Positions 1-55,419 of a stretch of 64,000 nt of DNA are shown one piece after another. Made by a program: the position numbers and the translations under genes. The stretch's first letter is position 1; each line of letters starts with the position of its first letter. The notes under the pieces were generated by a model. It had not been told where the DNA came from, did not search any database, and worked only from the letters and a program-made list of their open reading frames with translations. Origin of the DNA: Thermoplasmata archaeon (GTDB taxonomy: Archaea > Thermoplasmatota > Thermoplasmata > RBG-16-68-12 > JAFNFQ01); NCBI GenBank assembly GCA_041489255.1, contig JBGPQV010000002.1, forward strand, positions 1 through 64,000, given 5' to 3'.

Positions 1-2638
<2,638 letters not shown>

Positions 2639-2859
2639 ACCTGTCGGCTTAGCACACGTCCAGGCTACATATGAGTGGTATCAACGAACGCTGTGCATCG
2701 GAGACTTTAGGAGTCCCCTCCAGTGTTCTCTACCCTTCCCCGCAATCGTCTCGCGGCGACCCGGGTGCACGTGAAGTCTCCCAAGCTAAAACAGGGATGC
2801 CATCATTTCTATGGTGCATTGCCCTTGCTTTGGAGAGCAGAAACATATGAGCGAGCGTG

Positions 2860-2976: not shown

Positions 2977-3963
2977 ATGCGTTGGCTGATCGAGCTTTCC
3001 GGGGAGCATCCGACCCTCCCTAGCGCCGAGGCGGCAGCCTGCTTCGAGGCGCTGAAGGCGCGTGCGACGGACGTCGAGGTCGACGGCGCGCTGATGACGT
3101 TCGCAGCCGAAGCGAAGCCGGAGCTCGTGGCGGAGAGGCTCGCGTTGAGTCACTTCGTCAACGAGGAGATTGCGGCGGGAGCTTTCGAGGACATCCTGGC
3201 GGCTTCGGAGAAGCTCGACTTGGCGGGAGCGAGGTTCATGGTGAGGGCGCCCGCCCGCGGCGGTTCCGTGAGAAAATCGGTTGAGGAGAAGATTGGCAAG
3301 GCGCTCGCGGGGACCGGAAAGGTCGATCTAGGGCAACCCGAGGTCACATTCAGGGTGCACGAAGGCAAGAAGTGGCACCTTTCCAGGGTCCTGTGCAAGG
3401 TGAACCGCACGGAGTTCGAGAGGAGGCGCCCCGCCAATAGGCCCTTCAAAAAGCCCGTCATGCTCCATCCCCGCCTCGCCCGCGCGCTCGTGAACCTGAG
3501 CAGGGTCTCATATGGCGGGAGGCTGCTCGACCCGTTCTGCGGGACGGGAGGGATTCTCCTGGAGGCGTCGCTAGTCGGCGCTGAGATCGTCGGATCCGAC
3601 ATCGACGGCGAGATGATTGCGGGCTCGCGGAAGACCTTGAGTCACTTCAATCAGACCGGACGTCTGATCATGGCGGACGTGGGGAGGCTGCCCTCGCTCG
3701 TCGAGAAGGTCGACGCGATAGCGACAGACCCGCCATACGGTCGGTCGTCGAGCACGAGGAGTGAGTCGATCGAGTCGCTCTACCCGAGAGCTTTCGAGGC
3801 GTTCGGGCAGCTGCTCAAGCCCGGAGCGCACCTGGCCATCTGCCTCCCGGAGGAAAGGCACGCGACTATGGCGGGGCCGGATCTGAAGCTCGAGGAGACA
3901 TATCCGGTCCGCGTCCATGGATCGTTGACTAGGCACTTCACGGTCTTCTCTAGGTCACGCTGA
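2977..3963 (+). CDS. trm11: tRNA (guanine(10)-N2)-methyltransferase Trm11/TrmG10
   Basis: ELSGEHPTLP N-terminus, THUMP-like region, LHPRLARALVNL, DPFCGTGG SAM motif, TDPPYG; ATG at 2977 chosen over the upstream GTG. Confidence 0.9.
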   Translation: MRWLIELSGEHPTLPSAEAAACFEALKARATDVEVDGALMTFAAEAKPELVAERLALSHFVNEEIAAGAFEDILAASEKLDLAGARFMVRAPARGGSVRKSVEEKIGKALAGTGKVDLGQPEVTFRVHEGKKWHLSRVLCKVNRTEFERRRPANRPFKKPVMLHPRLARALVNLSRVSYGGRLLDPFCGTGGILLEASLVGAEIVGSDIDGEMIAGSRKTLSHFNQTGRLIMADVGRLPSLVEKVDAIATDPPYGRSSSTRSESIESLYPRAFEAFGQLLKPGAHLAICLPEERHATMAGPDLKLEETYPVRVHGSLTRHFTVFSRSR

Positions 3964-5447: not shown

Positions 5448-6044
5448 TCATCGGGTCGCGCCCAATAGCCAAAGGATTATGGCGGTGACCAGACCGGCGG
5501 CCGCGAAACGCAGCCCGGAGAATATCGCGTGCTCCTTCGCCATGCGCCCCATATACGCGCCCATCGCGAACAGGAAAGAGAGCGTGATTATGATGGATAT
5601 CCACACTGCGTCCACGAACGACATGAACAAGAACGGTACAACGGGGACCAGGGAGGCGATGAGCGGGGCGACGCCATGGACTGCCGCGCTCGCCAGCGAG
5701 GCGAAGGCGAAGGCGTCCCTGTGGGTCTCGCCCAGCTCCGCAAGCATCGCGTGCTCAAGGGTGGTCTGGTTGATCTTCCTCTCGACCCTCTCCGCCTCGT
5801 AGGCTCCGACCAAGCTCGATATCGAGAGCGCGATCGCCGCGCTGAAGCTCATCGCGAGCACGAGGCTCCTGTGCTCCTCTCCCGCCCCCGCCACGATTGC
5901 CCCCAGTATGATGCCCAAGACCGTGAGGGCACCGTCGAACGCGCCGATGATGAAGTAGCGTCGGAGTATCGGCCCGACCTTGGTGATCTCGCTGTATTCC
6001 TTGAATCTCATCCTCAGGGTGCCGCGGGCCATCTCAGTTCGCAC
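5448..6044 (-). CDS. VIT1/CCC1 family membrane transporter
   Basis: RRYFIIGAFDGALTVLG, GAYEAERVE and about 5 TM helices; overlaps the alaS stop. Confidence 0.8.
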   Translation of the reverse strand: MRTEMARGTLRMRFKEYSEITKVGPILRRYFIIGAFDGALTVLGIILGAIVAGAGEEHRSLVLAMSFSAAIALSISSLVGAYEAERVERKINQTTLEHAMLAELGETHRDAFAFASLASAAVHGVAPLIASLVPVVPFLFMSFVDAVWISIIITLSFLFAMGAYMGRMAKEHAIFSGLRFAAAGLVTAIILWLLGATR

Positions 6045-8745
6045 CCGCCCTCAGTTTCGAAAGGGCCGCCTCCTTCATCTTCTCCACAGCCGCCTTCACT
6101 CCCGCAATGTTGGGCCCGCCGCCCTGCGCGAAGTCGGGCTTCCCCCCGCCTTTCCCGCCGATCAGGGCGACACCCTCGCCGATGATCTCCCTGCAATCCA
6201 GATTCACGCCTTCTGATCTGCCCACCGCGATGCTCGCCGTCTCTCCCTCAGCGCCAAGTATCGCAACCGCCTTGCCGCCGCCGAGCAGCTCCCCCGCGAG
6301 TGAGACGAGTTCGCTCATCCCGCCGGAGACCACGTGAGTGAAGACCCAGACACCACCCGCCTCGATGCCTTGCGGTGCACCCGTCCTCTTGTCGGTGCCC
6401 TGCGCGAGGATAGTCATCTTCTCCCGCTTCAGCCTCTCGACTTCCTTCCTCAACTCCTTGCGCTCGCTGGATAGGTGCTTCACCGATTCTGACATCTGCT
6501 CGATCGTCGTGCCGAGGATCTCGGCTATCTCCGCCCTCATCGACGACTCCTTGAGCATCTCATCGACGGCGGGTCTTCCCGCCGCATACTCGAGCCGGAG
6601 GACCCCGTCCTGTATCCTCTTCGTCCTCAGCATCTTGAAGGTGCCGACCTGGCCGGTCCTGTCGCAGTGAGTCCCGCCGCACGCCTCGACGTCCAGCCCG
6701 GGGATCTGCACGACCCTGACCATTTCACCCGGGACCGCGCCCCCCTGATACAGCCTGAAGCCGAACCTCCGCTCGGCTTCCTCCCGCGGAATGAAGCTCT
6801 TCTTCAGGGGGATGTCTGCGAGGATGATCTCGTTAACCCGCCTCTCGATCCTCTCTTTCTCTTCGGGCTTGAGGTTGTCGTAGTGGGTGATGTCGAGGCG
6901 GCCCTCGGTCTCTGACTTGTGCGCCCCCGCCTGCCAGACGTGCTTCCCCAGGATCTCCCTGGCAACCGCCAAGACCAGGTGTGTGGCGGTGTGGTTCCTC
7001 ATGAGGTTCACCCGCCTCTTCCAATCGATCTCACACTCGACCTTCTGCCCCTTCTTCACCTTGAGCTTCCCTTCAGTGAAATGCAGAACCGAGCCGCCAG
7101 ACCTCTGCACGTCGACGACTCGGTTCCAGCCGATCGTGCCATGGTCCGGCTCCTGCCCGCCGCCCTCGGGGTAGAAGTATGTCTGGTCAAGGACGACGAT
7201 GTTCCCCTTGATCGCCACGACTTTGGCGGTGAACTCGCGCTTCTGCTCGTCCTCGTAGACGCGGAGCTTCGTGGCGGGAAGACCCGTCGGCAATTCGCGC
7301 TTGATCTCCTCCTCGACCTCAGGCTTCTCGTGCCTCGCCGCAACCCGCCCATAGAAGTCGTCGGGGATCTCGATCTTCTCCTTCGCGAACTCGGAGACCA
7401 TCTCGGGGTTGAGGCCGTGGGAGTCGTAGAGCTCGACGAGCTGGTCGATGCCGATCTTGCCGCCCTCGGCCTTCACCTTCTCCTCCAGCCTCGTGACGAT
7501 GGCCATGCCCTTGGCGAGGGTATCGCTGTACCGCTCCTCCTCGATCTTGACGATGCGCGCCATGCTCTCCCTGTTCTCCTCGAGCTCGGGGAAGTCGTTC
7601 CTGAACATGTCGAGCTGCATGGCGATGATCTCGTCCAGTGTCTGCTCGAGGTCGAGAGTCTCGATCGCCCTTATCGCCCGCCGTATGAGGAGGCGCGCGA
7701 AATATCCCTCTCTCACGTTCGAGGGCACGACGCCGTCGGCCAGGAGGAACATGAGCGCCCTGGTGTGGTCGCAGAGGACGTAGAGGTTCTCGAGAGGCAT
7801 GATCGCCTCCAGCAGGTCCTGATAGGCTATGCCGATCCTCTTCGCGACCTCCAGTCGGATCTCGCGGATGTCCCTGGCGGTCTCGACCTTGGTGAGCCCC
7901 GCCACCCTGCTGTACTCCTGCAGTACCTTCTCCTCGGCGCTCACGCCCGAGGATTCCTTGAGGCTAGAGAGCACTTCGCCGAAGACCGCCTCGTAGGCTG
8001 AAGGCGTTCCCTGCGAGATCCATGTGAGTCTCTCGAGACCGTAACCTGTGTCGACGACCTGGATGCCCATAGGGACGTTCTTCCCGTCGACCTCCTTGTT
8101 CATCATGAAGACGAGCGTGGCTGCCTCGGCACCGCCAAGAATGACCTCGAAGCATGGCCCTGAATTGCCCCCGCCACTCCACCACGCCTCCTTGTAGGTG
8201 AGGGCCTTCGCGTCGACTTTGAGGCGGGAGGTCATGAACTCGTGACAGAGCTCCACTGTCCTGTCCTTGAAGTAGACCTTCTTCTTGGGGTAGTTGAAGG
8301 CGTGGTGCGCCATCATCTCGAACATGGTGAAGTGCTGGCCGGTCCTGCCGACGTTGTGAATGTCGTTGAAGCGGACGCAGGGCTGGCTGATCGCGAGGGG
8401 GTTGGCGGGAGGCTTCTCGACCCCGGAGACGACCCAGGGCTGGAACGGGTAGATGCTCGCCTGCGTGAAGAACACGTCGTCGCGCCAGCGCGCGACTATG
8501 GGGTAGCGGGGGATGCGCTTGTGCCCGTTCTTCTCCAGGAAGGTGAGGAAGGCCTCTCTCATCTCTCGGAGGGTGAATCGCCTGGCGGTTGGCGGGTGGC
8601 CGATGAAGTCGTACTCCTGACATGGGGTCTCGCCGCACGTCCGATGATCGCCGAGCGTCCAGAACCAAGTGCTGCACTTTGGGCACTTCCTGCGCTCGAA
8701 GTCCTTCTCCTTGAAAAGTGAGACGCGATAGTCCTTGTCGGACAT
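6034..8745 (-). CDS. alaS: Alanine--tRNA ligase (archaeal type)
   Basis: N-terminal CxxC, RWRDDVFFTQASI, HFTMFEMMAHH, DTGYGLER, editing motifs HTATH and ACGGTH, C-terminal GGKGGGKPDFAQGGG. Confidence 0.98.
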   Translation of the reverse strand: MSDKDYRVSLFKEKDFERRKCPKCSTWFWTLGDHRTCGETPCQEYDFIGHPPTARRFTLREMREAFLTFLEKNGHKRIPRYPIVARWRDDVFFTQASIYPFQPWVVSGVEKPPANPLAISQPCVRFNDIHNVGRTGQHFTMFEMMAHHAFNYPKKKVYFKDRTVELCHEFMTSRLKVDAKALTYKEAWWSGGGNSGPCFEVILGGAEAATLVFMMNKEVDGKNVPMGIQVVDTGYGLERLTWISQGTPSAYEAVFGEVLSSLKESSGVSAEEKVLQEYSRVAGLTKVETARDIREIRLEVAKRIGIAYQDLLEAIMPLENLYVLCDHTRALMFLLADGVVPSNVREGYFARLLIRRAIRAIETLDLEQTLDEIIAMQLDMFRNDFPELEENRESMARIVKIEEERYSDTLAKGMAIVTRLEEKVKAEGGKIGIDQLVELYDSHGLNPEMVSEFAKEKIEIPDDFYGRVAARHEKPEVEEEIKRELPTGLPATKLRVYEDEQKREFTAKVVAIKGNIVVLDQTYFYPEGGGQEPDHGTIGWNRVVDVQRSGGSVLHFTEGKLKVKKGQKVECEIDWKRRVNLMRNHTATHLVLAVAREILGKHVWQAGAHKSETEGRLDITHYDNLKPEEKERIERRVNEIILADIPLKKSFIPREEAERRFGFRLYQGGAVPGEMVRVVQIPGLDVEACGGTHCDRTGQVGTFKMLRTKRIQDGVLRLEYAAGRPAVDEMLKESSMRAEIAEILGTTIEQMSESVKHLSSERKELRKEVERLKREKMTILAQGTDKRTGAPQGIEAGGVWVFTHVVSGGMSELVSLAGELLGGGKAVAILGAEGETASIAVGRSEGVNLDCREIIGEGVALIGGKGGGKPDFAQGGGPNIAGVKAAVEKMKEAALSKLRAGAN

Positions 8746-8770
8746 GCGGGATTGCGAATGGATGGCGGCG

Positions 8771-8790
8771 TAATAAAGGTAAGTGGTGAC
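8771..8790 (-). promoter_or_regulatory. alaS TATA box, probably leaderless transcript
   Basis: Minus-strand CCTTTATTA about 26-33 nt upstream of the ATG at 8745; conserved in the copy at 10830-10838. Confidence 0.6.
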
Positions 8791-8864
8791 TCATTCTCCG
8801 CGAAAACGGTATTATCGAAATACCAAGAATCTTCGGCAGTCGCAAACGGTCGAAAGCCCCTTAT

Positions 8865-9650
8865 CTAAATCCTGCGGGGAAGGCGGAATCGCCACACAGA
8901 GGATGGTGTCTTCTCTAAGGAATCCAACGCTTCGTCGATTGCCCTATCGGCCTTTGAAGGTAAATAACGGGCTATGCCTGAGCTGACCTTCTTAAGAAGC
9001 CTGATCTCGTTGGGCAGCTCCGCCTCTACATCTATCCGTTTCGACTCATAGTCGAAAGTGACTGTAGGGAACGCGTCCGCAACAATCATTGTCCGAGCTT
9101 CCCGCCACACGTACTTCTCTCCTGCGGAGTCGAGCGCGGATCGAATGGCGGTCACTACATCGTCCCTGCCACTGTGAACGAAGCGCACGAGCATGCCTCC
9201 GTATCTTCGTTTCCTGAGTCTATGGAATATGTAGACGACGGGGAACATGGCAAGAAGGAGAATGATACCAATCTCGATCTCAGTTGATGCTTCAGCAGTC
9301 AGGCCTGTTGGCGGTATCAGCCAATAAAACAAGGGAATCGACAACACTCCACCAAGAAGCCCGATTGCCGCCATTGGGAATGGGTTGAGCAATTCCATAT
9401 CGAACCAGAGACCGATGAGGGATTTCCTCAGTCTGAGGTCCTGAAGGACGCCGATCGGTATCAAGACAATGAAGACAGCGAAGTAGGCGACCAGTGGATA
9501 GAACGAATAGTATAGAGAACCGTAGAAGACCAGAGGAAATGTGACGACGAGCGTAAAAACCACGAGAGCGTTTTCTCTCTTGACGCGCAATAGTTTCAAA
9601 GAGACCGATCTAGATCTTTCCGAGCGATCAAATGCAGGCATCTTATGCAT
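8865..9650 (-). CDS. Hypothetical membrane protein (about 4 TM plus soluble C-terminal domain)
   Basis: 261-aa ORF with hydrophobic segments, visibly more AT-rich than alaS; start at 9650 or 9641. Confidence 0.7.
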   Translation of the reverse strand: MHKMPAFDRSERSRSVSLKLLRVKRENALVVFTLVVTFPLVFYGSLYYSFYPLVAYFAVFIVLIPIGVLQDLRLRKSLIGLWFDMELLNPFPMAAIGLLGGVLSIPLFYWLIPPTGLTAEASTEIEIGIILLLAMFPVVYIFHRLRKRRYGGMLVRFVHSGRDDVVTAIRSALDSAGEKYVWREARTMIVADAFPTVTFDYESKRIDVEAELPNEIRLLKKVSSGIARYLPSKADRAIDEALDSLEKTPSSVWRFRLPRRI

Positions 9651-9659
9651 CTTGCTTCA

Positions 9660-9845
9660 TCAATCGCTGGATTGGTATTTCATAGTTACAGGTCATTCGC
9701 TCGCTCAAAGGCCAGAACCTTGTGTAGCACTTGGTGCGCCTCATCCGCTGGAAGGCTTTCTCCTTGAAAAGTGAGACGCGATAGTCCTTGTCGGTCATGT
9801 GGGTTCTCGAATGGACGGCAGTGTAATGAAGGTGAGTGATGCCGA
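9660..9845 (-). repeat. alaS promoter plus 5' fragment, copy 1
   Basis: ATG at 9798 reads MTDKDYRVSLFKEKAFQRMRRTKCYTRFWPLSERMTC against native MSDKDYRVSLFKEKDFERRKCPKCSTWFWTLGDHRTC; upstream sequence also aligns. Confidence 0.95.
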
Positions 9846-9950
9846 TTGACAACTCACTGACTGTGGCCATGGCCTGCGCGGTGTCCATCAAGTCAGAATC
9901 ATGGCTCCAATGCCACTAAATACCCCGGATGCCATAGATACCATGGAACC

Positions 9951-10232
9951 ATGGCAACCGTAGTCTCGATCGACAAGGCTGGGCGCATAGTCATACCGAA
10001 GGAGACCAGGGACTCGCAGAAAATCCGCCCTGGCGCTAAGTTCCTCCTGGTGAAGGGTCGCAACGGCATCATGTGGCTCCAGAGGCTGGACCCCGACGAG
10101 CTGGCGAGGCAGGTTCACGAGGAACTCAAAGGCGTGGACCTCGAACCGATTATCGCGAAGGTCAAGGCAGAGGTAGAGCGGCTCGCCTTGTCGTCGTATC
10201 CCGCACTCCGCCGAAAGCGCTCTAGGGCATAG
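9951..10232 (+). CDS. AbrB/MazE/SpoVT-family antitoxin (VapB-like)
   Basis: SIDKAGRIVIPKETR swapped-hairpin signature; directly upstream of a PIN gene. Confidence 0.88.
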   Translation: MATVVSIDKAGRIVIPKETRDSQKIRPGAKFLLVKGRNGIMWLQRLDPDELARQVHEELKGVDLEPIIAKVKAEVERLALSSYPALRRKRSRA

Positions 10233-10244
10233 GGGTCAGTCGCT

Positions 10245-10676
10245 GTGACCGACCCGCAATTGGTCCTCCTCGACACGAATGTGTGTGTATCCGCGGTGAA
10301 GAAACCGCTCAAGGAGACAGAGACATTCCGCCTGATAATCCACTTGTTGGAGGACGAAGGGTTCAGCCTTGTAGGAAGCGACATTCTTGCGCTGGAGCTC
10401 CTCCGCTACGCTGAGCAGTTCCCTTCCGCCACAGCGGCGACTCTCGCCACCGCCATGCTCGAGAAGATGTCGATAGTCAGGGTCGAGGAGAGGTTCATCG
10501 TTGCGTGCTCCCCGTACTTCCCGCCAAGCTCGCTCGCCGACTGCCTTCATGCAGCCACCTGCCTCCAGACCGGCGCCGTGTTCGTGTCAAACGACCGCGA
10601 CTTCGACAAGATCAGGAAAGCCGGCCTCGTCGACGTCCTGACGACCAGCGAGGCGATCCGTCGTTGGCTGCCGTGA
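10245..10676 (+). CDS. PIN-domain (VapC-like) toxin
   Basis: LLDTNV, LADCLHAATC, VSNDRDF acidic PIN motifs. Confidence 0.9.
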   Translation: MTDPQLVLLDTNVCVSAVKKPLKETETFRLIIHLLEDEGFSLVGSDILALELLRYAEQFPSATAATLATAMLEKMSIVRVEERFIVACSPYFPPSSLADCLHAATCLQTGAVFVSNDRDFDKIRKAGLVDVLTTSEAIRRWLP

Positions 10677-10731
10677 CCATGATGGCCTTGGCGCCCGACA
10701 TCTCACCGGAGGAGGAGCGCTAGTCAAGGGA

Positions 10732-10866
10732 TGCACTTGGGGCACTTCCTGCGCTCGAAGTCCTTCTCCTTGAAAAGCGCGACCCGGTAATCCTTGTCGG
10801 GCATGCGGGTTCTCGAATGAATGGCGGTGTAATAAAGGTAAGTGGTAATGGATTCTGCTCGAAAGC
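10732..10866 (-). repeat. alaS promoter plus 5' fragment, copy 2 (best conserved)
   Basis: ATG at 10804 reads MPDKDYRVALFKEKDFERRKCPKC then IP-stop; upstream TAATAAAGGTAAGTGGT identical to native. Confidence 0.97.
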
Positions 10867-10921
10867 GACGGACCAGAGGACTCATGACAAGGCACACCCG
10901 CCAGGCCATATCTCCTACCAA

Positions 10922-12745
10922 CTAGCGCTGATGTGACGTTCCTTTACGTCCTTTTCTTCTCTTCACCAGCACAACAACTGCAATTATGAGGAGTGCGACG
11001 GCGACCGCCGAAATCCAGAACAATGGTTCTTCGACAAGAGGGCGCTGATACGGAACGAAGGTGATGTTCGCCACAGCAAAGCTAGCAAGCAACCACCCAT
11101 ATGGATCGAATGTCACGTTCGTGGTTTGGGCACCAGATGAAAACGAAATCGTCATGTCTGTCGAGGTCAGGTTGACATATTTCTCCAGCACCACCTTGCG
11201 CCCGTTGACGGTGGTAAAGCTCACGTCAATGGGCATGACGACATCTTCACTCCGACGAATCTTGATCTCCGTGAGGAAAGTGCCATCACGTTGTTGAAGA
11301 CATCTCGCGTTTGTGACCTCAACTCCCAAATGCCCGGTTCCGTAGAGCCACTCCTGGAAGAACCAACTTAAGTTCCGTCCCGAGACATCTTCAGAAGCCC
11401 TCTCGAAATCCGCAATCACTACTCCCACGGAAAAGGCATTTTGTGTCGCAAAGCGATTCATTACCTGGAAGAATGTGGCGTTTCCCAAGACGTAGCGCAG
11501 CATATGGAGAATCCATGGACCCTTATTGTATGGGCTGAACCCTCCGGCGACCGACGAACTCTCGACAGGCCTGTAATCTCTCTGATAATATGTCTTCTTC
11601 TGCAGCTCCAACCTGCTTCGATTCTGGTACTGATATTCACCGTAAAGATCCGCCGAGTAAGAAGCGAAGCCTTCGTGCAGCCAATGACTCCCATCCCCGA
11701 GGCCAACAACGGTGTGTCCCCACCAGTTATGGGATATTTCATGCGTGAGAGGACCATCGGCTGGATTAAAGTCATTGAAGACATTGGTCTGCATTACGAT
11801 GAACGATTGAAGGCAGGCGGCCCCGTAAGCGAATTCCGAGGGGATTTCAACCAATGCCAACTTAGGATAGGGATAGGAAGAAAACACTGATTCATAGAAA
11901 TCCAGCGTCCTATTCATTTCGTCAAGGTAGCTCCACTTCAGGTGATCGTGCTGGGGGAAGAGGTACACCTCGACGCTGATGCCATTGTGCATCACTGCCG
12001 TCTTGTTGAAGGCTCCTTCTGCGAAACTCAATTCCTTGGCAGGGTCTGAAGTGCGCCAATGAAATGTCAGATTGCCTGGAGATGGCGTGCGAGTCCCAAC
12101 CAATTCGCCATTGGAGACAACAACGCGCCCTATAGGCACGGTGATGTTGATATCCGCGGTGAATCTGTCGTATGATGCATTTTGGTCTCCTCTGTGGACT
12201 TTCGGATACCAGAATTCTCCTCGCTGGACCCAAGATCCTTCATTTCCGATGTGGTCGACATTCCCGTTCGTCACAGTGCCGCTGTACTTGACCACCAATC
12301 CCACCGTGCTCTGATTGATGAGATGCCCATCCGGGTGCACGAGCAGATGGTAATCCCCAGCGATGTCAAAGTCATAATCGTAGCTCAATGCCGTCCCGTT
12401 GAATAGTGAAACGTTCGATGGAGTCAGGCCCAGATCGAACGCCAGGTCCTGGGCGCAGTCTGTGATGTTGACCGTGATGATCGAAATGCCGTGCAGGTAA
12501 TTCAAGGCAGGTTGAACGGTGACATTGATGTCATAGTGCAGCAAGTCGAATGCGAACGGAGTTCGTAGTTCACCCCTGGTCGGGCCGCCAAAATCGGTGG
12601 CCTCGTTATGCGATTTCTGAGAATCAGAAGTACCTGAATCCTCGTTGTTGGTCTCTGCAAACGAGACGGAGGAGAGCATGAGCAGGATCAGTACCAAGCT
12701 TGCCGCCTTGAAGCCCCTCATCCATGCTTCTCCTTGGAGGTTCAA
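10922..12745 (-). CDS. Secreted, membrane-anchored M1 family aminopeptidase
   Basis: Signal peptide, HEISH-x18-E (WLHEGFASY), YNKGPWILHMLR, C-terminal TM and basic tail; ATG 12721 is an alternative start. Confidence 0.9.
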   Translation of the reverse strand: MNLQGEAWMRGFKAASLVLILLMLSSVSFAETNNEDSGTSDSQKSHNEATDFGGPTRGELRTPFAFDLLHYDINVTVQPALNYLHGISIITVNITDCAQDLAFDLGLTPSNVSLFNGTALSYDYDFDIAGDYHLLVHPDGHLINQSTVGLVVKYSGTVTNGNVDHIGNEGSWVQRGEFWYPKVHRGDQNASYDRFTADINITVPIGRVVVSNGELVGTRTPSPGNLTFHWRTSDPAKELSFAEGAFNKTAVMHNGISVEVYLFPQHDHLKWSYLDEMNRTLDFYESVFSSYPYPKLALVEIPSEFAYGAACLQSFIVMQTNVFNDFNPADGPLTHEISHNWWGHTVVGLGDGSHWLHEGFASYSADLYGEYQYQNRSRLELQKKTYYQRDYRPVESSSVAGGFSPYNKGPWILHMLRYVLGNATFFQVMNRFATQNAFSVGVVIADFERASEDVSGRNLSWFFQEWLYGTGHLGVEVTNARCLQQRDGTFLTEIKIRRSEDVVMPIDVSFTTVNGRKVVLEKYVNLTSTDMTISFSSGAQTTNVTFDPYGWLLASFAVANITFVPYQRPLVEEPLFWISAVAVALLIIAVVVLVKRRKGRKGTSHQR

Positions 12746-12802
12746 GACCCCTTGAGAACTTAACTCTTTTTCCCGCTAAGACCGGCTGAACGCGTTCCAC
12801 GC

Positions 12803-12952
12803 AGCATGGTCTAACTCACCGAGTGATCAAAAGAACGGGCCGCATGTGACGCACTTCCTCCGCTCGAGGGCTCTGGCGGTGAAAAGAGAGACGCGGTAGT
12901 CCGTGTCAGGCATGCGAGTTCTCCAGTGGACGGTGGCGCAGTGAGGGCAAGC
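12803..12952 (-). repeat. alaS promoter plus 5' fragment, copy 3 (most decayed)
   Basis: ATG at 12913 reads MPDTDYRVSLFTARALERRKCVTCGPFF-stop-SLGE, with TGA at the native Trp codon; not shown in this frame in the ORF track. Confidence 0.9.
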
Positions 12953-13032
12953 CGCAGCTGCATAGTGACTGAAATCAAACCGGCCCAGAGAAACTGTGGA
13001 TGCATGATGGGCTGCATCGACTACTCGCGTTT

Positions 13033-13827
13033 CTACCGAGCCGTTCCCACCTTTCGAGACGCTCTTCGTCCTATTATTACTATCCAGTCGGGGATCTCCA
13101 GACCGCCCGTCGTCAATTTCTGCTCATGAAAATCCCAGAAGCCCTCCCTGACACCCCAGCGCAACAACAGCGCTCGAGCAGCAGCCGCCCGGACAGTCAG
13201 TCCACTCTTCAGGGCGATGGTCTGAGGCTCCCTGAATCCCGCCTTCCTGAGTTGAGCTGCCGCCAACCTTGGCGGCGGCGAGAACCACTCCTTGGGCGGA
13301 AATCTGGTCCATCGCGTATCCGAGTCGGCGTCGATGACCAACTTCTGCCTCGGGTTCCTCGGTTTGGGCGAGAGGAACGAGTGGATCGTGACACCGCCGG
13401 GCTTCAAGACCCGGTAGCAGTCGGAGAAGAAGGCCTCGACCTCGTAGGAGCTGAGCTCGGGGAGGAATTCGCTCGATATCACCGCCTCGTATTGGCCATC
13501 CCGTTGGTCAGACAGCCACTTCAGACCATAGGCGATGATGACTCGGACGCTGCCTTCCAACCCATGGCGGGCAACGGCGGTCAGGAGTTTCTCGCGACTG
13601 TCCACATACGGACCTGCGTATCTGTCGACGCCGATCAGACCGCGGCCGCCGACGAGCCTCGCCAGGGGAACCGTCAGCTGTCCGCTCCCGCATCCGATCT
13701 CGACGAGGGGGCCATCGCCCGGCGGCACCAGGGCGGCGAACTGCTCGGCCAACATCTCGTACTGCAGGGACCAGGCTTCATCGAGCTTCTTCGGGTTTGA
13801 AACCGACGTCATGAGAGTATTCGGCAT
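13033..13827 (-). CDS. Class I SAM-dependent methyltransferase
   Basis: VEIGCGSG motif I, YRVLKPGG. Confidence 0.88.
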   Translation of the reverse strand: MPNTLMTSVSNPKKLDEAWSLQYEMLAEQFAALVPPGDGPLVEIGCGSGQLTVPLARLVGGRGLIGVDRYAGPYVDSREKLLTAVARHGLEGSVRVIIAYGLKWLSDQRDGQYEAVISSEFLPELSSYEVEAFFSDCYRVLKPGGVTIHSFLSPKPRNPRQKLVIDADSDTRWTRFPPKEWFSPPPRLAAAQLRKAGFREPQTIALKSGLTVRAAAARALLLRWGVREGFWDFHEQKLTTGGLEIPDWIVIIGRRASRKVGTAR

Positions 13828-14400
13828 ATGGCTGCGGGTTTATAGTTCAATCTGCCGTCCACAAGCACGGTCCACCGCAAGAAGCCTTTAGTAGGGACGA
13901 TGTGCATGACGTGGACATGAATCCGCGGGCGGGAGTAGGGCTGGAACGCCGTCGACAGGCACGGAAGCAGCGCCAACGAGCACGAAGGAAATATTCGCGA
14001 AAAGACAAACCGAAACATTGAGCGCACGGACGGCGACCGGAGAGCCGTGGACATGGAAGAGGGATGCCATCAACGAGAGGACTGTCTGAATGGGCGCCCT
14101 GAGAACGGGGAAGATGAAGCGGCGGAGTTGCGAGAGCAGGATGATGAATCAGCACAGACGGGCCCGAGCTTGCTAGACAGTTCATGATATGGCGTTCCTG
14201 ATCACGCGATTCTCTCCAAGGCTGGATGCCCGGTCGCAGAGCTACTTGTCCGGCAGCCAATTCCAATCCGGAAATCGAATAGAAATGCTTCAAATTACAT
14301 TATCATACGGAGCCAGCGGACACAATAAACTTAAATACGACCAGCGTATTGTGTAATTACTTCAAGTACTTCAAATACTTTGGATTAGAGCGGGATTTCG

Positions 14401-15219
14401 ATGCAACAAATGCCACTTATATCACCAGAGATGGAAATATCTAGATCGGCACTCTTAGTGCGTCAGAGGCCGCACGGGAAGCTCGAGGGTCTGAAGGCAC
14501 TCGTTACTGGGGCGTCAAGGGGAATCGGCAGGGAGATAGCGTTTGAGCTGGCCGCGGAAGGCGCGGACATCGCAATCAACTACACCCGCGCGGACGATGA
14601 GGCGGACCTCGTCGGGGTCGCGATCGAGGGCATGGGGAAGAACACATGGACCTACCCCGCCGACATCTCCGATTATTCTCAGGTCCAGGCGATGAAGGCG
14701 AGCCTGGACAAATACCTCGGACCTATTGACATCCTCGTCAACAACGCGGGCATCAACCTCGACAGGGTCTTCATGAAGATGGAACCCGAAGACTGGAACC
14801 GCGTGCTCTCTGTGAACCTCGCCGGGGTTTTCAACTGCACGAAGGTCTTCCTGGACGACCTCCTCAAGTCGAGGCAGGGCAGGATCATCAACATCACGAG
14901 CATCGTGGGCCAGATGGGGAACATCGGCCAGGTCAACTACGCCGCGAGCAAGGCGGGGATCATAGGGATGACGAAGGCGCTCGCGAAGGAGCTAGCGTCG
15001 AAGCGCGTCACAGTCAACGCCGTCGCGCCGGGGTTCATCGAGACCTCGATGCTGGCGGGAGTCCCCGAGAACATAAGGGCGAGAATCCTCGAGCAGATAC
15101 CGATGAGGCGGTTCGGGAATCCGGAGGAGGTGGCCAAGGCCGTCTCCTTCCTCGCTTCCGAGGACGCCTCGTACATCACCGGCCACGTTCTGAACGTGAA
15201 CGGGGGCCAATATCTATGA
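14401..15219 (+). CDS. phaB: Acetoacetyl-CoA reductase / FabG-type SDR (PhaB)
   Basis: TGASRGIG, NNAGI, NYAASKAG, NAVAPGFI; heads a PHA synthase cluster. Confidence 0.8.
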   Translation: MQQMPLISPEMEISRSALLVRQRPHGKLEGLKALVTGASRGIGREIAFELAAEGADIAINYTRADDEADLVGVAIEGMGKNTWTYPADISDYSQVQAMKASLDKYLGPIDILVNNAGINLDRVFMKMEPEDWNRVLSVNLAGVFNCTKVFLDDLLKSRQGRIINITSIVGQMGNIGQVNYAASKAGIIGMTKALAKELASKRVTVNAVAPGFIETSMLAGVPENIRARILEQIPMRRFGNPEEVAKAVSFLASEDASYITGHVLNVNGGQYL

Positions 15220-15264
15220 CGATCACTCACGAATCATCAGGATTTCGAGTGAAAGAGGCATAAC

Positions 15265-16209
15265 ATGACAACAAAGAAACAGACAATAAAAGGGAGCGTA
15301 GGTGGCAGAAAGGCCCCAGCTCAAGACAAAGAGAATGCGCAGAGACTGCCCGAGAACTACAGCCGGTTCTTCCAGGCCTGGTCGAACATGAGCCAGGACA
15401 TAGAAGAACAGGTGAGCCAGAACCTGAAGAAGCAGCATGACATGTACGACGACTTCTTCGGGCGATGGAACAAGCTATCGGCGGAGGTCGGCAGCCGCCT
15501 GAGCAAGGACAGAACGAACGAGGGCGTCAGGGAATTCTATGACGTCTGGAGGAACTACGCCAACAAGATGGGCCCAAGGCTGCAGAAGGCCATGACAGAG
15601 GGCATGCAGGGATACGGCAGCATCGCCAAGAACCTGGACAAGTACACCCAGAAGATGAGAGACGAGGCGCAGGGGATCCTCTCGAAGCCGGAGGAGCCGC
15701 GCAACCTCGATGATCTCTACGACGCCTGGCAGGGGTTCGGTACATCCGTCAGGACGCACATGGAGGCCGCGATGGGGCAGGAGTGGGCGGAGGCCGACGA
15801 GCTGACCAGGACGTGGCTCGACTTCAGCAACCGCATGCAGAAGCTTGTCTCAGATGCCGGTGAGGGCACAGACTACGCCAGTCTCGCGGGGCTCTGGCAG
15901 AAGTTCTCCAAGGAAATCGGAGGCTCTGTGGTGTCCGTCGTGAACGGGACGAGCGAGGACATGAACAAGCTCCAGAAGACCTGGAACGACTACTACTCCA
16001 AGGTCGAGCGTGAGATAGTGAATATCGCCGACAACGACGGCACGGGATACCAGCAGCTCTACATACGGTTCTTCGATCAGCAGAACGATGCGCTGAAGAG
16101 CCTCGGGCAGTGGTGGCAGACCGCGGCCGAAACGGCGAGGAAGCAGCTCGACGACATGCAGGGCAGGCTGCAGGATATTGAGAAGAGGCTCAGGGACACG
16201 AAACGCTAG
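15265..16209 (+). CDS. PhaE-like or granule-associated all-helical protein
   Basis: Repeated amphipathic Trp helices (FFQAW, FYDVW, LYDAW, LQKTW), C-terminal coiled coil, position between phaB and phaE. Confidence 0.55.
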   Translation: MTTKKQTIKGSVGGRKAPAQDKENAQRLPENYSRFFQAWSNMSQDIEEQVSQNLKKQHDMYDDFFGRWNKLSAEVGSRLSKDRTNEGVREFYDVWRNYANKMGPRLQKAMTEGMQGYGSIAKNLDKYTQKMRDEAQGILSKPEEPRNLDDLYDAWQGFGTSVRTHMEAAMGQEWAEADELTRTWLDFSNRMQKLVSDAGEGTDYASLAGLWQKFSKEIGGSVVSVVNGTSEDMNKLQKTWNDYYSKVEREIVNIADNDGTGYQQLYIRFFDQQNDALKSLGQWWQTAAETARKQLDDMQGRLQDIEKRLRDTKR

Positions 16210-16251
16210 AATCGCTGCGTCACCCTCGGAAACACAGACCGGAGTTGTGAT

Positions 16252-16800
16252 ATGGCAGCGAAGCGAACGGGTGCAACCCGAGCGAAGCCGCATGGGAAGC
16301 CGGAGGAGCCGCAGCCAGCCTCGCCCCTCCGGGAGATAATGGAGTCCCAGTTGGATCTCTGGAGGAGACTCAACACAAAGGAAGGGACGGACGTCGGCGA
16401 GGCCGCCAAGGAGATGGCCCCGTTAGTGGCGGAGCACTGGGCGAAGATCTTCGACGAGCTATCGCGGTCTGCCGCCATGATGCAGACGAGCGAGAACCCC
16501 CTGGCGATCCAGGAGGGCCTGCCCAAGAACCTGCTCGCCAACTACAATCAGATGTTGAAGAGGGTCTTCCTGACCGAGTCATTCGCTGCGCGGTCGGGCA
16601 GCTCGGTTCGAGGGTTGCTGGAGGGCGTGAAAGCATGGAACGAAGCTATGGACGGCACCCTGAAAGCAATGCGCATCCCCTCGAAGGCGGACATCGACGA
16701 GATTCATGAAGAGCTGTACAACCTGAGCAAGAGGGTCGACTACCTGGTCAAGTCTCTCGAGAATGGAGGCGCACGCGGAAGGCGGGAGAGGCGACGTTAG
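16252..16800 (+). CDS. phaE: Class III PHA synthase subunit PhaE
   Basis: C-terminal MRIPSKADIDEIHEELYNLSKRV matches the PhaE tail motif; immediately upstream of phaC. Confidence 0.8.
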   Translation: MAAKRTGATRAKPHGKPEEPQPASPLREIMESQLDLWRRLNTKEGTDVGEAAKEMAPLVAEHWAKIFDELSRSAAMMQTSENPLAIQEGLPKNLLANYNQMLKRVFLTESFAARSGSSVRGLLEGVKAWNEAMDGTLKAMRIPSKADIDEIHEELYNLSKRVDYLVKSLENGGARGRRERRR

Positions 16801-16812
16801 GAAGGTGAATCG

Positions 16813-17916
16813 ATGGCCACCAATGATTCGGCATTGTCGCGCTGGGAGAACAGCCTCGATATGCTCGTGGAAAAGCGGTACAGACAGGCGGCTGCAGGGA
16901 TGAAGCTCCTGGCCAATCCGCCAGCCGCGGATGTCGGGACTTCCGAGTGCGAGGTCGCCTACAAGAAGGACAAAATGAGGCTCCTGCACTACACCGGAGG
17001 GCCGCAAAAGAAGGCGCCCGTGCCCGTGCTTCTCGTTTACGCTCTGATTAACCGCCCCTACATCCTCGACCTCCAGCAGGACAGGAGCGTCGTGCAGACG
17101 CTGCTCGGGCGTGGACTCGACGTCTACATGATCGACTGGGGGAAGCCGACGGACGGGGACAGGTTCCTGGGGCTCGAAGACTATGTCGAAAGGTACATGG
17201 ACGATTGCTTCGACGTCATCATGGAGAGGTCCGGACAGAAGTCCATCTCGGTGCTCGGCTACTGCATCGGCGGTTACCTCGCCTCGGTCTACGCGTCACT
17301 CCACCCGGAGAAGGTGAGGAATATCGCGCTGATGGCCTCGCCGCTTGATTTCGGGATTGAAGAAGGCATGTTGCACCTCTGGACAAAAGCGGAGTATTTC
17401 AACCCGGAATTGGTTGTCGAGGCTTTCGGGAACGCACCGACCGAGTTCCTCAACAGTGGCTTCACGATGCTCGACCCAATCGGCAACACGGTCATCAAGT
17501 ACATGGGCCTCGCGGAAAACATTGAGGACAAAGAGTTCGTGGACATGTTCTTCCGCATGGAGAAGTGGCTCTCCGACGGGATACCCGTGGCGGGAGCGTT
17601 CTACATCGACCTGATCCGCGACGGCTACCAGAGGAACCTGTTCGTGAAGAACCAGCTGAGAGTCAACAGCCGCAAGGCGAGCGTGGACAAACTGACCATG
17701 CCCATGCTCGCGATCGTGGCGGAGAAGGACCACATCGTCCCGCCATCATCGACCCTCGGGCTGCTCAAAGTAGCGCCGTCAAAAGACAAGACGACCTTCT
17801 CATTCCCGACCGGCCACATAGGCCTCTCGGTTGGCAGCGGGTCACACAAGGACCTCTGGCCCAAGGTGGCCAAGTGGTTCCTCGATCATTCGAAGACGCC
17901 CAGCTCGAAAAGGTGA
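16813..17916 (+). CDS. phaC: Class III PHA synthase subunit PhaC
   Basis: VYALINRPYILDLQ, lipase-like box GYCIGG (catalytic Cys), FFRMEKW, AEKDHIVP, TGHIG. Confidence 0.93.
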   Translation: MATNDSALSRWENSLDMLVEKRYRQAAAGMKLLANPPAADVGTSECEVAYKKDKMRLLHYTGGPQKKAPVPVLLVYALINRPYILDLQQDRSVVQTLLGRGLDVYMIDWGKPTDGDRFLGLEDYVERYMDDCFDVIMERSGQKSISVLGYCIGGYLASVYASLHPEKVRNIALMASPLDFGIEEGMLHLWTKAEYFNPELVVEAFGNAPTEFLNSGFTMLDPIGNTVIKYMGLAENIEDKEFVDMFFRMEKWLSDGIPVAGAFYIDLIRDGYQRNLFVKNQLRVNSRKASVDKLTMPMLAIVAEKDHIVPPSSTLGLLKVAPSKDKTTFSFPTGHIGLSVGSGSHKDLWPKVAKWFLDHSKTPSSKR

Positions 17917-17920
17917 ACCG

Positions 17921-18736
17921 ATGGATGAGAGGTGGACGTCCATTCTCCTCGAAAGGACCGACGGCGTCGCCCGCCTGACGCTCAACAGGCCAGAGCGGCT
18001 CAACGTCCTCAGTTCAGCCATCCTCAACGAGATTAGCGAGGCGCTGTCCATCATCGCCGGGGACGAGGACACGAGGGCAGTCGTGCTCAGGAGCAGTTCC
18101 CAGAAGGCTTTCACCGCAGGAGCGGATATCACCGAGATGAGACAGCTGAAGCCGCAAACCGCGAGAGGCTTCTCCGCCTTGGGGCATCTCGTCGCTCGCA
18201 AGATCGAGACCGAGCTCCCGCCGACGATAGCTGCACTGAACGGGTACGTGATGGGCGGCGGCGTGGAGATAGCCTCGGCGTGCGACTTCCGCATCGCGTC
18301 CGAGGACGTCGTGCTGGCCCAGCCGGAGATCGACATAGGCATATTCCCCGGATGGGGCGGGAGCCAGCGGCTCGCCAGGATAGTCGGCCTTCCCAGGGCG
18401 AAGGACCTGATACTCACGGGGAGGAAGGTCATGGCCAGAGAGGCGCTCGAGCTGGGCCTCGTACACCAGATCGTCCCGAATGGACAGCTCGATTCAGCCG
18501 CGATGGAGCTCGCGAGAGTCCTCGCTTCGAAAAGCAGGGCCGCCTTGATGGCGGCGAAGAGGGCAATCAACATGACTCAGGAGATGCCTCTCCACAAGGG
18601 CCTAGAAGAGGAGATGCAGGAATGGGCGCTCATGTTCGACACGCCAGACCAGAAGGAGGGCATGAGCGCTTTCCTGGAGAAGCGGAAGCCACGCTACTCG
18701 CATGTCAACGGTGCGATCGAGGAGCCGCCCGCCTAG
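17921..18736 (+). CDS. Enoyl-CoA hydratase / crotonase
   Basis: LNRPERLN, FTAGADI, GGGVEIA, PEIDIGIFPGWGG; AGGTGA RBS before ATG 17921. Confidence 0.92.
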   Translation: MDERWTSILLERTDGVARLTLNRPERLNVLSSAILNEISEALSIIAGDEDTRAVVLRSSSQKAFTAGADITEMRQLKPQTARGFSALGHLVARKIETELPPTIAALNGYVMGGGVEIASACDFRIASEDVVLAQPEIDIGIFPGWGGSQRLARIVGLPRAKDLILTGRKVMAREALELGLVHQIVPNGQLDSAAMELARVLASKSRAALMAAKRAINMTQEMPLHKGLEEEMQEWALMFDTPDQKEGMSAFLEKRKPRYSHVNGAIEEPPA

Positions 18737-19015
18737 CCAGAGAGGATTGTCAAGCCTGATAGTCACCGATGACAGCGCATCATCGACTCTGGCGACGTCG
18801 GGAGAGTGCTGGAGTCAGGCGGCGTGTCAAGTGTCCGCGATGCTTCTCGCACTTCGTCCTGTGCAGGCTGAGGGGCGGGCCGGAAGCCCATGGAGAATGG
18901 ACCTGCGCTTCGACCACTCCGTGACGTATCAACGCGAATAACGCCCAGGAAGCCCACGGAACCGCAAATCTCGACGGGGAGCCGGGCAAAGACTTGTTTT
19001 CGTGCATTCGACGGT

Positions 19016-19561
19016 TCAATAGATGCCCTTGACGGCATCGAGGAACCTGTCGACCGCCAGGGCGGCGTCCTCCAGCGTCCTCGTCCCAGTGCACACGACC
19101 TTCCCGCTCTGGAAAACGAGGATGACCGCCTTGGGCTCCTTGAGCCTGTAGACCAGCCCGGGGAACTGCTCGGGCTCGTACTCGACGCCCTCCGACAGGA
19201 GCGCCGTCGCGATCATGCTCAGGTCAAAGGAAATCTTCAGGTCCGCCGTCGCCACTATGTTCTGGATCTCGACATCCAGCTTGTCCCTGACCTTCGCGCC
19301 AGCGGCCGCAGCAGTCTTGGCGACATTCTTCACCGCCTCCCTGGCCTGCTCCACGCTCTTCCCGCCAGTGCACACGACCTTGCCTGTGCTGAAGAGGAGG
19401 ATGGCCACCTTGGGCTTCCTCATCCTGTAGACCAGCCCGGGGAACTGCTCGGGCTTGTAGGTCACGTGATCGTCGTTCATGGAGAGGGCCAGCGCCTTGA
19501 GGTCCAGGGAATCCGCTATCCGCCCAGACGCGACTATGTTCTGTATCTCGATTGTCGCCAC
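19016..19561 (-). CDS. tbp: TATA-box-binding protein
   Basis: Two repeats of QNIVA...PEQFPGLVYR...GKVVCTG; GTG start at 19561 inferred. Confidence 0.96.
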   Translation of the reverse strand: MATIEIQNIVASGRIADSLDLKALALSMNDDHVTYKPEQFPGLVYRMRKPKVAILLFSTGKVVCTGGKSVEQAREAVKNVAKTAAAAGAKVRDKLDVEIQNIVATADLKISFDLSMIATALLSEGVEYEPEQFPGLVYRLKEPKAVILVFQSGKVVCTGTRTLEDAALAVDRFLDAVKGIY

Positions 19562-54687: not shown

Positions 54688-54699
54688 AGCCTCTTCCGA

Positions 54700-55326: not shown

Positions 55327-55419
55327 TGCACTCTGGCCCGGCGGCTGATGGGTGGGAACAGTATAGAACCTTTGGAAGGGACGCGACCGGAATCCAATGC
55401 GGCGGGTTTGCCCTTGGCC

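Follow-up and report, generated by a model that had tools for sequence, protein, structure and literature searches.

Relics of the alaS promoter and 5' end stacked with variable modules in a Thermoplasmata archaeon: an array probably built by homology-anchored displacement

Introduction

In the T6SS (type VI secretion system) effector-immunity arrays of Vibrio cholerae and in the displacement of Rhs C-terminal ends, as presented in the cited sections of PMC5361080, a conserved part of a gene serves as homology anchor, modules arriving from other strains displace the old end, which is kept next door together with a fragment of the anchor, close strains differ in their arrays, no integrase takes part, and the mechanism put forward is homology-facilitated illegitimate recombination. 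The dusA islands, according to the cited portion of PMC4482086, insert into the 5' part of a conserved gene, bring along a 5' end with a putative promoter and leave a remnant of the old 5' end. In Archaea, the homeocassettes of Halorubrum ezzemoulense are islands exchanged by homologous recombination in the flanking core genes; divergence is far greater in the island genes than in the core genes, and one island pair is flanked by alaS, as stated in the cited part of PMC11078007. Integrons have likewise been reported in archaeal genomes, in the cited extract of PMC9668308. Here we describe a locus that recalls each of these systems. It lies in a stretch of 64,000 nucleotides (positions 1 to 64,000 of contig JBGPQV010000002.1, assembly GCA_041489255.1), called the window hereafter, from a Thermoplasmata archaeon whose genome (G000) comprises 2.74 Mb in 41 contigs, the window being on contig C2. 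In this window, the promoter and first codons of alaS, the alanyl-tRNA synthetase (AlaRS) gene, are found four times in direct orientation and alternate with unrelated gene modules.

Like an integron, the alaS locus holds small modules, toxin-antitoxin pairs among them, in an array that varies between strains and in which new modules would enter nearest the anchor and push the older ones outward. Unlike an integron, it has neither IntI nor attC-like folded sites nor attI, its repeat is a housekeeping promoter with a coding 5' end, and several of its modules have their own orientation and signals. Several features of a displacement array are present, namely a fragment of the anchor beside the intact gene, modules that correspond to the proximal arrangement of other strains, and an allele mosaic in the anchor. 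The T6SS and Rhs arrays differ in growing at the 3' ends of toxin genes and in holding toxin tips and immunity genes, again as described in the sections cited above, whereas the arrays considered here are anchored at 5' ends that include a promoter, those of the essential housekeeping genes alaS, coaBC and purB of an archaeon, the cargo is heterogeneous, and relic promoters could drive the cargo or fuse in frame to it. A further array of the same genome, at the 3' end of a methylase gene on contig C33, is nearer to the classical T6SS/Rhs form. In the cited description, each dusA island has its own tyrosine integrase next to the site and a 21-bp consensus att repeat, while the alaS array has no integrase, variable end points, modules of 1-2.4 kb and several target genes. 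Homeocassettes, finally, are mutually exclusive replacements, for which the cited part of that work describes neither stacking nor retained duplicates of core-gene ends. No description of a stacked array of housekeeping promoter and 5'-end relics was found in the literature searched, which is not proof of absence.

Results

The alaS gene, used here as the anchor, occupies positions 6034-8745 of the window on the minus strand and encodes a protein of 903 aa (Pfam tRNA-synt_2c, E 5.5e-127, together with tRNA_SAD and DHHA1). A repeat search of window positions 7000-16000 returned a single family of four direct 143-nt copies, located at 8666-8808, 9719-9861, 10725-10867 and 12834-12976, with successive starts 1053, 1006 and 2109 nt apart. 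Ungapped identity to the native copy (copy 1) is 71% for copy 2, 85% for copy 3 and 63% for copy 4. In the sense of alaS (minus strand), each copy consists of about 45 nt, an ATG (at 8745, 9798, 10804 and 12913, respectively) and alaS-like codons, of which about 43 can be aligned in copy 2, about 24 in copy 3, where a stop follows at codon 27, and about 33 in copy 4, which has a stop at codon 29. When copy 1 was compared by blastn, copies 3 and 2 gave E-values of 2e-41 and 3e-30, and the next best match to the unit in the 2.74-Mb genome, beyond the copies, reached only E 0.005 over 28 nt; the copies are therefore not chance matches. A profile of the four copies, which these match by construction, found no further genomic copy better than E 0.41. 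Four direct copies of the promoter with 24-45 codons, at these ATGs and spacings, had been proposed in the initial annotation, which the repeat search and the alignments bear out; blastn and the profile revealed no copy elsewhere in the genome. A fifth, very degenerate alaS-like start was seen by eye ahead of the methyltransferase gene (about 13827-13870); the profile fails to detect it and it was not counted.

Copy 1 in its full extent (8647-8811, minus strand) carries a conserved block resembling a transcription factor B recognition element and TATA box (BRE/TATA-like block) at about -46 to -18 relative to the ATG at 8745. This block, with a BRE/TATA-like element at about 33-46 nt ahead of the ATG, is nearly invariant in the eight native loci compared below, in which divergence of the coding 5' ends reaches about 20%; by comparison with archaeal promoters in general, it would be a promoter with a very short leader. 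The relics differ in their state of preservation. Copy 2 (9700-9868, minus strand) is a decaying relic with the promoter and about 43 alaS-like codons, in which the ATG at 9798 opens a 51-codon open reading frame (ORF) that ends at 9643. Copy 3 (10708-10870, minus strand) retains an intact promoter block followed by 24 alaS codons, and copy 4 (12815-12980, minus strand) is the oldest-looking relic, with its TATA-like block destroyed. Relative to the native codons, synonymous and non-synonymous changes number 4 and 2 in copy 3, 3 and 9 in copy 4, and in copy 2 they number 2 and 7 over codons 1-24 and 4 and 13 over codons 25-43. On these counts, copy 3 has the appearance of a working start that was displaced recently, and copies 2 and 4 have that of sequence in decay.

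The region upstream of alaS was then compared among relatives, using a species-representative set of 40 genomes, of which only G001 shares the genus, and a metagenome scan queried with the first 300 AlaRS residues, which yielded 80 loci, six of them close (84-98% amino acid identity) and 74 at 64-70%. The close clade thus comprises eight loci: the window, G001 and L029 to L034. Two to four copies with differing cargo were present in seven of the eight, the profile counting four in the window and in L029, two each in L030, L031, L032, L034 and G001, and one in L033, which has just 749 nt of upstream sequence. The second copy of L034 is weak (E 0.08), yet it starts a protein homologous to the L029 fusions described below. 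In a genome collection of 185,579 species, the promoter motif was found in one stretch only, the G001 contig. Neighbours of one cargo protein in the Atlas belong for the most part to Thermoplasmatota, which gives a hint at most.

Within the clade, the cargo includes the M1 peptidase, the PIN/AbrB pair, the 261-aa membrane protein, a YdjM-like protein, a flavoprotein resembling sulfide dehydrogenase and a family of proteins with two transmembrane segments (two-TM proteins). Going inward from the flank, G001 has a short relic, a YdjM-like gene in antisense orientation, the methyltransferase gene, an 80-nt PIN fragment, the M1 peptidase gene and alaS; L030 has the methyltransferase gene, PIN/AbrB, a relic promoter cut at the ATG, a YdjM-like gene and alaS, the YdjM-like alleles of the two loci being 71% identical. 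L029 begins distally with the methyltransferase end, a copy, a two-TM gene and a partial copy, and continues proximally with the flavoprotein gene (Pyr_redox_2/FCSD, on the other strand), a copy fused to a second two-TM gene, and alaS. Along 7176 nt, which begin at -35 and extend past alaS, L029 and the window are 99.0% identical, and their arrays are wholly different. Homology upstream of the native ATG stops between -35 and -59 in 28 of the 28 pairs formed by the eight loci, which is the upstream edge of the near-invariant BRE/TATA-like block. The differing cargo and copy number in close relatives exclude a fixed cargo set derived from one ancient duplication.

Traces of recombination are visible within alaS itself. 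Between -50 and +2700, the window and L029 differ at 55 positions, 42 of which fall in the first 800 nt and one in the next 1200 nt, and their native copies are just 89% identical from -45 to +60. At +101, +122 and +131 the window has the alleles of G001, unlike L029 and L030, and at +172 and +173 it has those of L031 and L032. By this comparison of alleles, the first 220 nt or so of alaS is a mosaic, as successive crossovers there would be expected to leave.

The relics of the window can also be matched with the arrangements of other lineages. Copy 3 and the M1 peptidase gene upstream of it are the positional counterpart, in a contiguous alignment, of the native alaS start of G001; the peptidase alleles share 73% nucleotide identity compared with 92-96% in the flanks. 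Copy 2 with the upstream PIN/AbrB genes is 93% identical to L030, and copy 4 with the methyltransferase 3' end is 78% identical to the beginning of L029. The relics end at 0 (at the ATG, L030), about +33 (G001), about +60 (the fusions), and +73, about +100 and about +130 (the window). Being scattered from 0 to about +130, these ends have no common core, that is, alaS has nothing like the short att core shared by the ends of an island.

Some relics appear to act still as gene starts. At L029 214-534, L029 2571-2891 and L034 520-834, proteins of about 105 aa with two hydrophobic segments and a conserved Cys loop begin with about 20 codons that are derived from alaS at the DNA level and in frame. 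The same two-TM gene is found in L031 behind a relic with a stop, and L032 (1024-1446) has a different in-frame alaS-start fusion of 140 aa. A word-based protein search with the two-TM protein gave the self-match only, and an exhaustive profile search found eight proteins at E <= 1e-3 among 1.84 billion representatives. Distant members (P0004 and P0006) have unrelated N-termini, so the alaS-like start is a derived fusion. Judging from these reading frames, some relics would provide starts for other genes, including fusions of an AlaRS N-terminus to a membrane protein.

Further cases came from a comparison of the genome with itself; as sorting all local repeats automatically by ORF ends proved too noisy at the G+C content of this genome, the loci reported are those inspected by eye and by Pfam. 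On contig C7 (L111, 2569-9277), the promoter and about 28 codons of coaBC (Pfam DFP and Flavoprotein) are present three times, with ATGs at 2628, 4451 and 8081 and 88-93% identity, and the cargo consists of a 139-aa ORF, a 255-aa paralogue of the membrane protein and, on the other strand, a 1017-aa secreted repeat protein. G001 has two copies, one relic and the native one (contig C9 of G001, 12586-16410), and its native coaBC promoter with the first codons is the counterpart of relic B of G000. A block of 1161 nt that holds the 255-aa gene and the coaBC start is 98.7% identical between G000 and G001, compared with 89.5-90.6% in the surrounding 16 kb; its right edge is inside the coaBC 5' end in both genomes and its left edge lies off any repeat copy. 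On contig C17 (L113, 2701-2861 and 5279-5439), the promoter and about 37 codons of purB (Lyase_1 and ADSL_C) are duplicated 2.6 kb upstream at 96% identity, with the gene of a 423-aa secreted protein in between, and in G001 the sequence between purB and the shared flank differs from that of G000. In G001, moreover, 110 nt of the purB 3' end are repeated about 500 nt downstream of the gene (contig C12 of G001, 6675-6784 versus 7175-7284).

Gene 3' ends are concerned as well. On contig C33 (L109, 1-12200), the last 45 codons or so and the stop of an N6_N4 DNA methylase gene occur in eight direct copies with 84-92% identity, each followed by different small modules, which include MNT-like nucleotidyltransferases, a DUF234 ATPase and weak HicB-like and MqsA/MazE-like matches. 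Among these copies, the non-synonymous divergence (dN) is 0.00-0.18 and the synonymous divergence (dS) 0.21-1.63, with dN/dS about 0.05-0.3 and dN lower than dS in 28 of 28 pairs. Since dN is far below dS and most copies lie outside long ORFs, the copies diverged as working gene ends in different lineages before their displacement. From its sequence organisation, the C33 array looks like a 3'-end mirror of the alaS array and resembles a stack of toxin-antitoxin or defence cassettes. On contig C12 (L116), the 3' end of nac (NAC and UBA; about 1590-1704) is duplicated 2 kb downstream at 3650-3767 with 92% identity, with two ORFs between the copies. Taken together, the recurrence of this architecture at the coaBC, purB, methylase and nac ends cannot be explained by a single-site recombinase and can be explained by a process that uses homology in gene ends. 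Other local direct repeats of 70-180 nt at kilobase spacing are found on C6 (1163/2980), C15 (34360/35452/42969), C22 (12142/15340/19135), C9 (68138/74248) and C34 (8396/11212); they resemble duplicated gene ends whose anchors lack a Pfam assignment, and for the anchor of the C15 family Pfam gave no support.

Site-specific machinery was searched for in several ways. Pfam searches of the larger ORFs recognised no integrase, or fragment of one, in the eight alaS arrays or in the coaBC, purB and C33 arrays, and contig C2 has no PF00589 tyrosine recombinase, in agreement with the initial annotation, which had seen no integrase by the array. None of the 14 recombinase genes of G000 lies on an array contig (C2, C7, C17 or C33). 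The best scores of the four tyrosine recombinases among them are 42.4 bits against the integron integrase TIGR02249 (cut-off 265) and 108.9 bits against the archaeal XerA/integron integrase NF040815 (cut-off 220). Single-stranded DNA folds of the four units, each on both strands, gave z-scores of -1.02 to +1.44, none of the eight being below -1.1, so that the units show no attC-like hairpin potential, and no inverted repeats were found within a repeat unit. Likewise, an Rfam search of window positions 1-24000 detected 23S rRNA only and no known RNA element in the repeat units. On viral contigs, the promoter unit gave no match and the 261-aa protein had no relative. A DDE transposase gene is present on C2 at 71169-71708, outside the window, and TnpB-like matches above the cut-off were not found.

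Some observations concern these recombinases themselves. A tyrosine-recombinase ORF at positions 1284-2630 of L127 (contig C18 of G000, 52000-56000) overlaps with its first bases a tRNA-Leu(CAA) gene; some archaeal integrases carry the att site within their own gene, and conventional elements target tRNA genes. Serine recombinases are located at C25 26748-29659, C28 14922-17872, C18 17907-19593 and C14 7408-9132, and of the ten serine-recombinase genes, six form two clusters of three and two adjoin tyrosine-recombinase genes.

As an assembly check, contigs of four independent public sediment-metagenome runs, that is, assembled contigs and not reads, whose samples and studies differ from the possible source, were aligned to window positions 7800-14600. 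All copy/cargo junctions were bridged with 0 differences in contigs from at least two of the four runs. An X2 contig (8712-9787) reaches from copy 1 through the 261-aa gene into the relic of copy 2, and an X4 contig (9814-10769) spans the copy 2 promoter, the AbrB and PIN genes and the copy 3 relic; X2, X3 and X4 contigs run from about 10745 into the peptidase gene, and X2 (12449-14600), X3 (12654-13832) and X4 (12457-13081) contigs cross copy 4 into the methyltransferase gene. The relics moreover hold stop codons and radical replacements that are incompatible with any working alaS allele. From the alignment, the exact stretches common to the copies are about 35-38 nt long. The contigs of the four runs have no joint inside the array, which, for assembled contigs only, is no evidence against excision. 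Uncovered parts, and contig ends left loose near 10638-10724 and 13118 in X4 and X5, point only to possible variant strains. In G001, alaS is split at its 5' end over two contigs (C76 and C16), and C76 (L009, 1-261) opens with 131 nt that reverse-complement the alaS sequence behind them, a fold-back typical of assembly artefacts at contig ends.

The modules between the copies agree with the gene content of the initial annotation (a membrane protein, an inverted AbrB-PIN pair, an M1 aminopeptidase and a methyltransferase) according to Pfam, the membrane protein being without a Pfam family. This first module is a hydrophobic protein of 261 aa (8865-9650, minus strand), co-oriented with alaS and directly downstream of copy 2, the 51-codon relic ORF of which overlaps at its end the start of the 261-aa gene. 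Its 255-aa paralogue in the coaBC array on C7 has 30% amino acid identity (E 2e-30), and all three genes of the 261/255-aa family in the genus lie directly upstream of a promoter-5' copy; a distant homologue in G008 stands among ordinary genes without local repeats. The family was considered as a hallmark of a mobile cassette, and this idea was dropped, as members are present in three of the 41 genomes searched and the G008 homologue lies outside arrays. The second module, antisense to alaS, consists of a MazE/AbrB-like antitoxin gene (9951-10232, plus strand; MazE_antitoxin E 3.4e-4, below the curated cut-off) and a PIN toxin gene (10245-10676, plus strand; Pfam PIN E 3e-13). Copy 3 (10708-10870), with its promoter block intact, is directed into the 3' end of this PIN/AbrB operon (10245-10676) and, if active, would yield antisense transcripts of the pair. 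The third module is an M1-family peptidase gene (10922-12745, minus strand; Pfam Peptidase_M1 E 4.6e-15) with a signal-peptide-like start, probably at the ATG at 12721, and a hydrophobic C-terminal anchor. Beyond copy 4, a class I methyltransferase gene (13033-13827, minus strand; Pfam Methyltransf_25/11) lies within the variable region in G001, where a further relic and a YdjM-like gene are distal to it. A conserved flank (13868-19169), 87-96% identical to G001 and L030, forms the outer border of the variable region. A 95-nt direct repeat of 84% identity (19086-19180 and 19365-19459, 279 nt apart) follows there and is partly visible at the end of the G001 contig. On the other side, 3.4 kb downstream of alaS, lies the 5' part of a 23S rRNA gene (1-2640, minus strand), truncated by the start of the contig.

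Discussion

The initial annotation had seen in the alaS 5' end a reusable acquisition point, at which the older promoter and codons are left as a relic, and the variation in cargo and repeat number at seven of the eight close-clade loci upholds this view. Of its two proposed mechanisms, the homology-anchored recombination given as an alternative fits better than the integron-like one with a trans-acting recombinase, in the light of the allele mosaic of alaS and of the same architecture at other gene ends; the integron-like one finds no integrase nearby, no attC-like hairpins and relic ends spread from 0 to about +130. Recombinases do exist elsewhere in the genome, as had been asked, with none on the array contigs and none reaching the XerA/integron-integrase cut-off.

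We think it probable that the alaS array was built by sequential displacement anchored by homology in the conserved end of the gene. DNA from a related lineage would arrive with the neighbour gene or genes of that lineage, its alaS promoter and its alaS 5' end, and would recombine homologously within alaS, the crossover falling in the first few hundred bases. The other end of the incoming DNA would be attached, with no homology involved, within the resident alaS 5' end or immediately upstream of it. Using the incoming promoter and first codons, alaS would stay intact, and the resident promoter with 0-45 codons would be severed and displaced upstream as a relic; repeated events of this kind would build the array. 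A relic could then decay, as copies 2 and 4 may have done, or become promoter and start of the next gene, as might be the case for the 261-aa gene and for the fusions of the AlaRS N-terminus to two-TM proteins. All relics would offer dispersed homology through which host recombination could shuffle, delete or swap modules between strains. The joining itself could consist of a one-sided homologous exchange with illegitimate joining, or of a single crossover of a circular fragment, and the transfers may have run in either direction. A dedicated recombinase would not be needed to build the array, although a recombinase with an activity like that of homologous recombination may help. The repeats observed may be short survivors, since long ones recombine out. 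The presence of several anchors in one genome suggests that the displacement process is lineage-wide.

Several results weigh against sequential displacement. The methyltransferase and PIN genes are neighbours in L030 and G001, and in the window the block made of copy 4, the M1 peptidase gene and copy 3 is placed exactly between them. On the distal side of its methyltransferase gene, G001 carries a relic and a YdjM-like gene that neither the window nor L030 has. Simple insertion beside alaS would produce neither feature, and both require extra block exchanges or deletions. No donor/recipient pair that resolves both junctions of one event is found among the compared loci. The public contigs (k=31) stop at exact 31-mers common to the copies (9765-9787 and 10748-10777), so that the module order across the repeats is without independent proof. 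The three coaBC relics, which have different downstream sequence, end at +75, +81 and +84, and ends within 10 nt hint at a preferred site. The genome does encode recombinases, four tyrosine (PF00589) and ten serine (PF00239). Finally, the arrays are confined to the clade, one group of uncultured archaea from sediments: a second alaS N-terminus was found in none of 18 order-level relatives with 5.3-12.6 kb upstream, nor a credible extra copy in any of the 74 distant metagenome loci, where the upstream sequence measures at least 1 kb in 60, at least 2 kb in 52 and at least 5 kb in 31, the two matches at E 0.005 being short or on the wrong strand. Generic recombination alone might predict sporadic cases outside the clade.

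Part of this evidence would suit homology-guided cassettes, in which the cargo and an arm of the gene end (about -45 to +60 or +130) loop out between adjacent copies as a circle that is transferred to a second strain and integrates there through one crossover at the same gene end. The catalyst might be the host RadA or a pTN3-type integrase, and in function the whole would parallel an integron, with IntI and attC lacking. At five or more gene ends, every module is bracketed by direct repeats of 70-180 nt, the 98.7% identical block of 1161 nt, well above the baseline of its locus, has its right edge inside the coaBC 5' end, where the relic ends also cluster, every same-genus 261/255-aa gene adjoins a promoter-5' copy, and a YdjM-like module next to a relic stands at one array position in G001 and at another in L030. 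The pTN3 integrase moreover recombines identical segments as short as 104 bp, as given in the cited portion of PMC8371274. On the other hand, the assembled contigs of the runs contain no circular junction, the YdjM-like alleles are too different (71% identity) to be one recently moved cassette, the left edge of the 1161-nt block coincides with no repeat copy, alaS relics end at scattered positions, none of the arrays has a recombinase linked to it, and the G008 homologue of the membrane protein stands among ordinary genes. We consider such cassettes an unlikely origin of the alaS array. A somewhat wider proposal, a general homology-guided cassette system of the lineage in which cargo and a 70-180-nt copy of a housekeeping gene end move between strains and stack, is doubtful but deserves mention; in it, modules at 5' ends would bring the promoter and start codon for the essential gene and would also express the next module or fuse to it.

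Sequential displacement can further be compared with the accretion of decayed integrative elements, which would have hit the alaS 5' end through a site-specific, dusA-like or trans-acting recombinase, carried the replacement promoter and 5' end within attP, accumulated in tandem and lost their integrases. The toxin-antitoxin cargo, which is typical of integron arrays, would agree with such an origin, and so would the 14 recombinase genes of the genome and the tyrosine recombinase that overlaps tRNA-Leu, since the latter indicates that conventional integrative elements are present. The product would also match the outcome of dusA islands in the cited portion of PMC4482086, with a replaced 5' end and an old remnant. 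Nevertheless, the eight alaS arrays and the coaBC, purB and C33 arrays contain no integrase or fragment of one, the modules measure merely 1-2.4 kb, alaS relic ends from 0 to +130 share no core, the units do not form hairpins and are absent from viral contigs, the best integron-integrase score is 42.4 against 265 bits, and at least five affected gene ends would demand as many specificities. This makes decayed elements distinctly unlikely.

A tandem duplication in place of the promoter and 5' end, selected as a portable expression signal and involving no horizontal input, would account for the relics that serve as gene starts in L029, L034 and L032, for the 261-aa gene directly after copy 2, for the unrelated N-termini of distant two-TM homologues and for the intact promoter block of copy 3. 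However, the modules are mutually unrelated and hence no duplicates of a neighbour, and what is native in other lineages is found again in the relics with their upstream contexts. Divergence of the M1 peptidase allele far exceeds that of its flanks and the alaS 5' end is a mosaic, the TATA-like block is gone from copy 4, the changes in copies 2 and 4 are like those of neutral sequence, and the C33 relics have dN/dS far below 1 though they lie outside long ORFs. Such a duplication is very unlikely to explain the array. That strain variants were threaded through shared k-mers by metagenome assembly is extremely unlikely: the 41-contig assembly, the exact stretches of about 35-38 nt at which k=31 contigs break, and the split alaS and the fold-back of G001 would fit, but the copies are 63-85% identical rather than near-identical, the relics hold stops and non-conservative changes, the relic/cargo junctions lie outside shared k-mers with 0 differences in at least two of four runs, and eight independent contigs from different data sets have the same array type with different content, seven of them with extra copies.

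If the cassette system were real, it would amount to an integron-like platform for gene capture without IntI or attC, perhaps aided by a recombinase. Under sequential displacement, the locus would extend the principle of displacement arrays, described at the 3' ends of bacterial toxin genes, to the promoter-bearing 5' ends of housekeeping genes in Archaea. The arrays are hot spots of the flexible genome that break assemblies, alaS of the congener G001 being split exactly there, and they provide natural before/after pairs for recombination between diverged archaeal genomes. The leftover promoters and starts would become ready-made expression signals, and even N-termini, for newcomer genes, and the array as a whole would show how an archaeon keeps adding foreign genes ahead of an essential gene without ever inactivating it.

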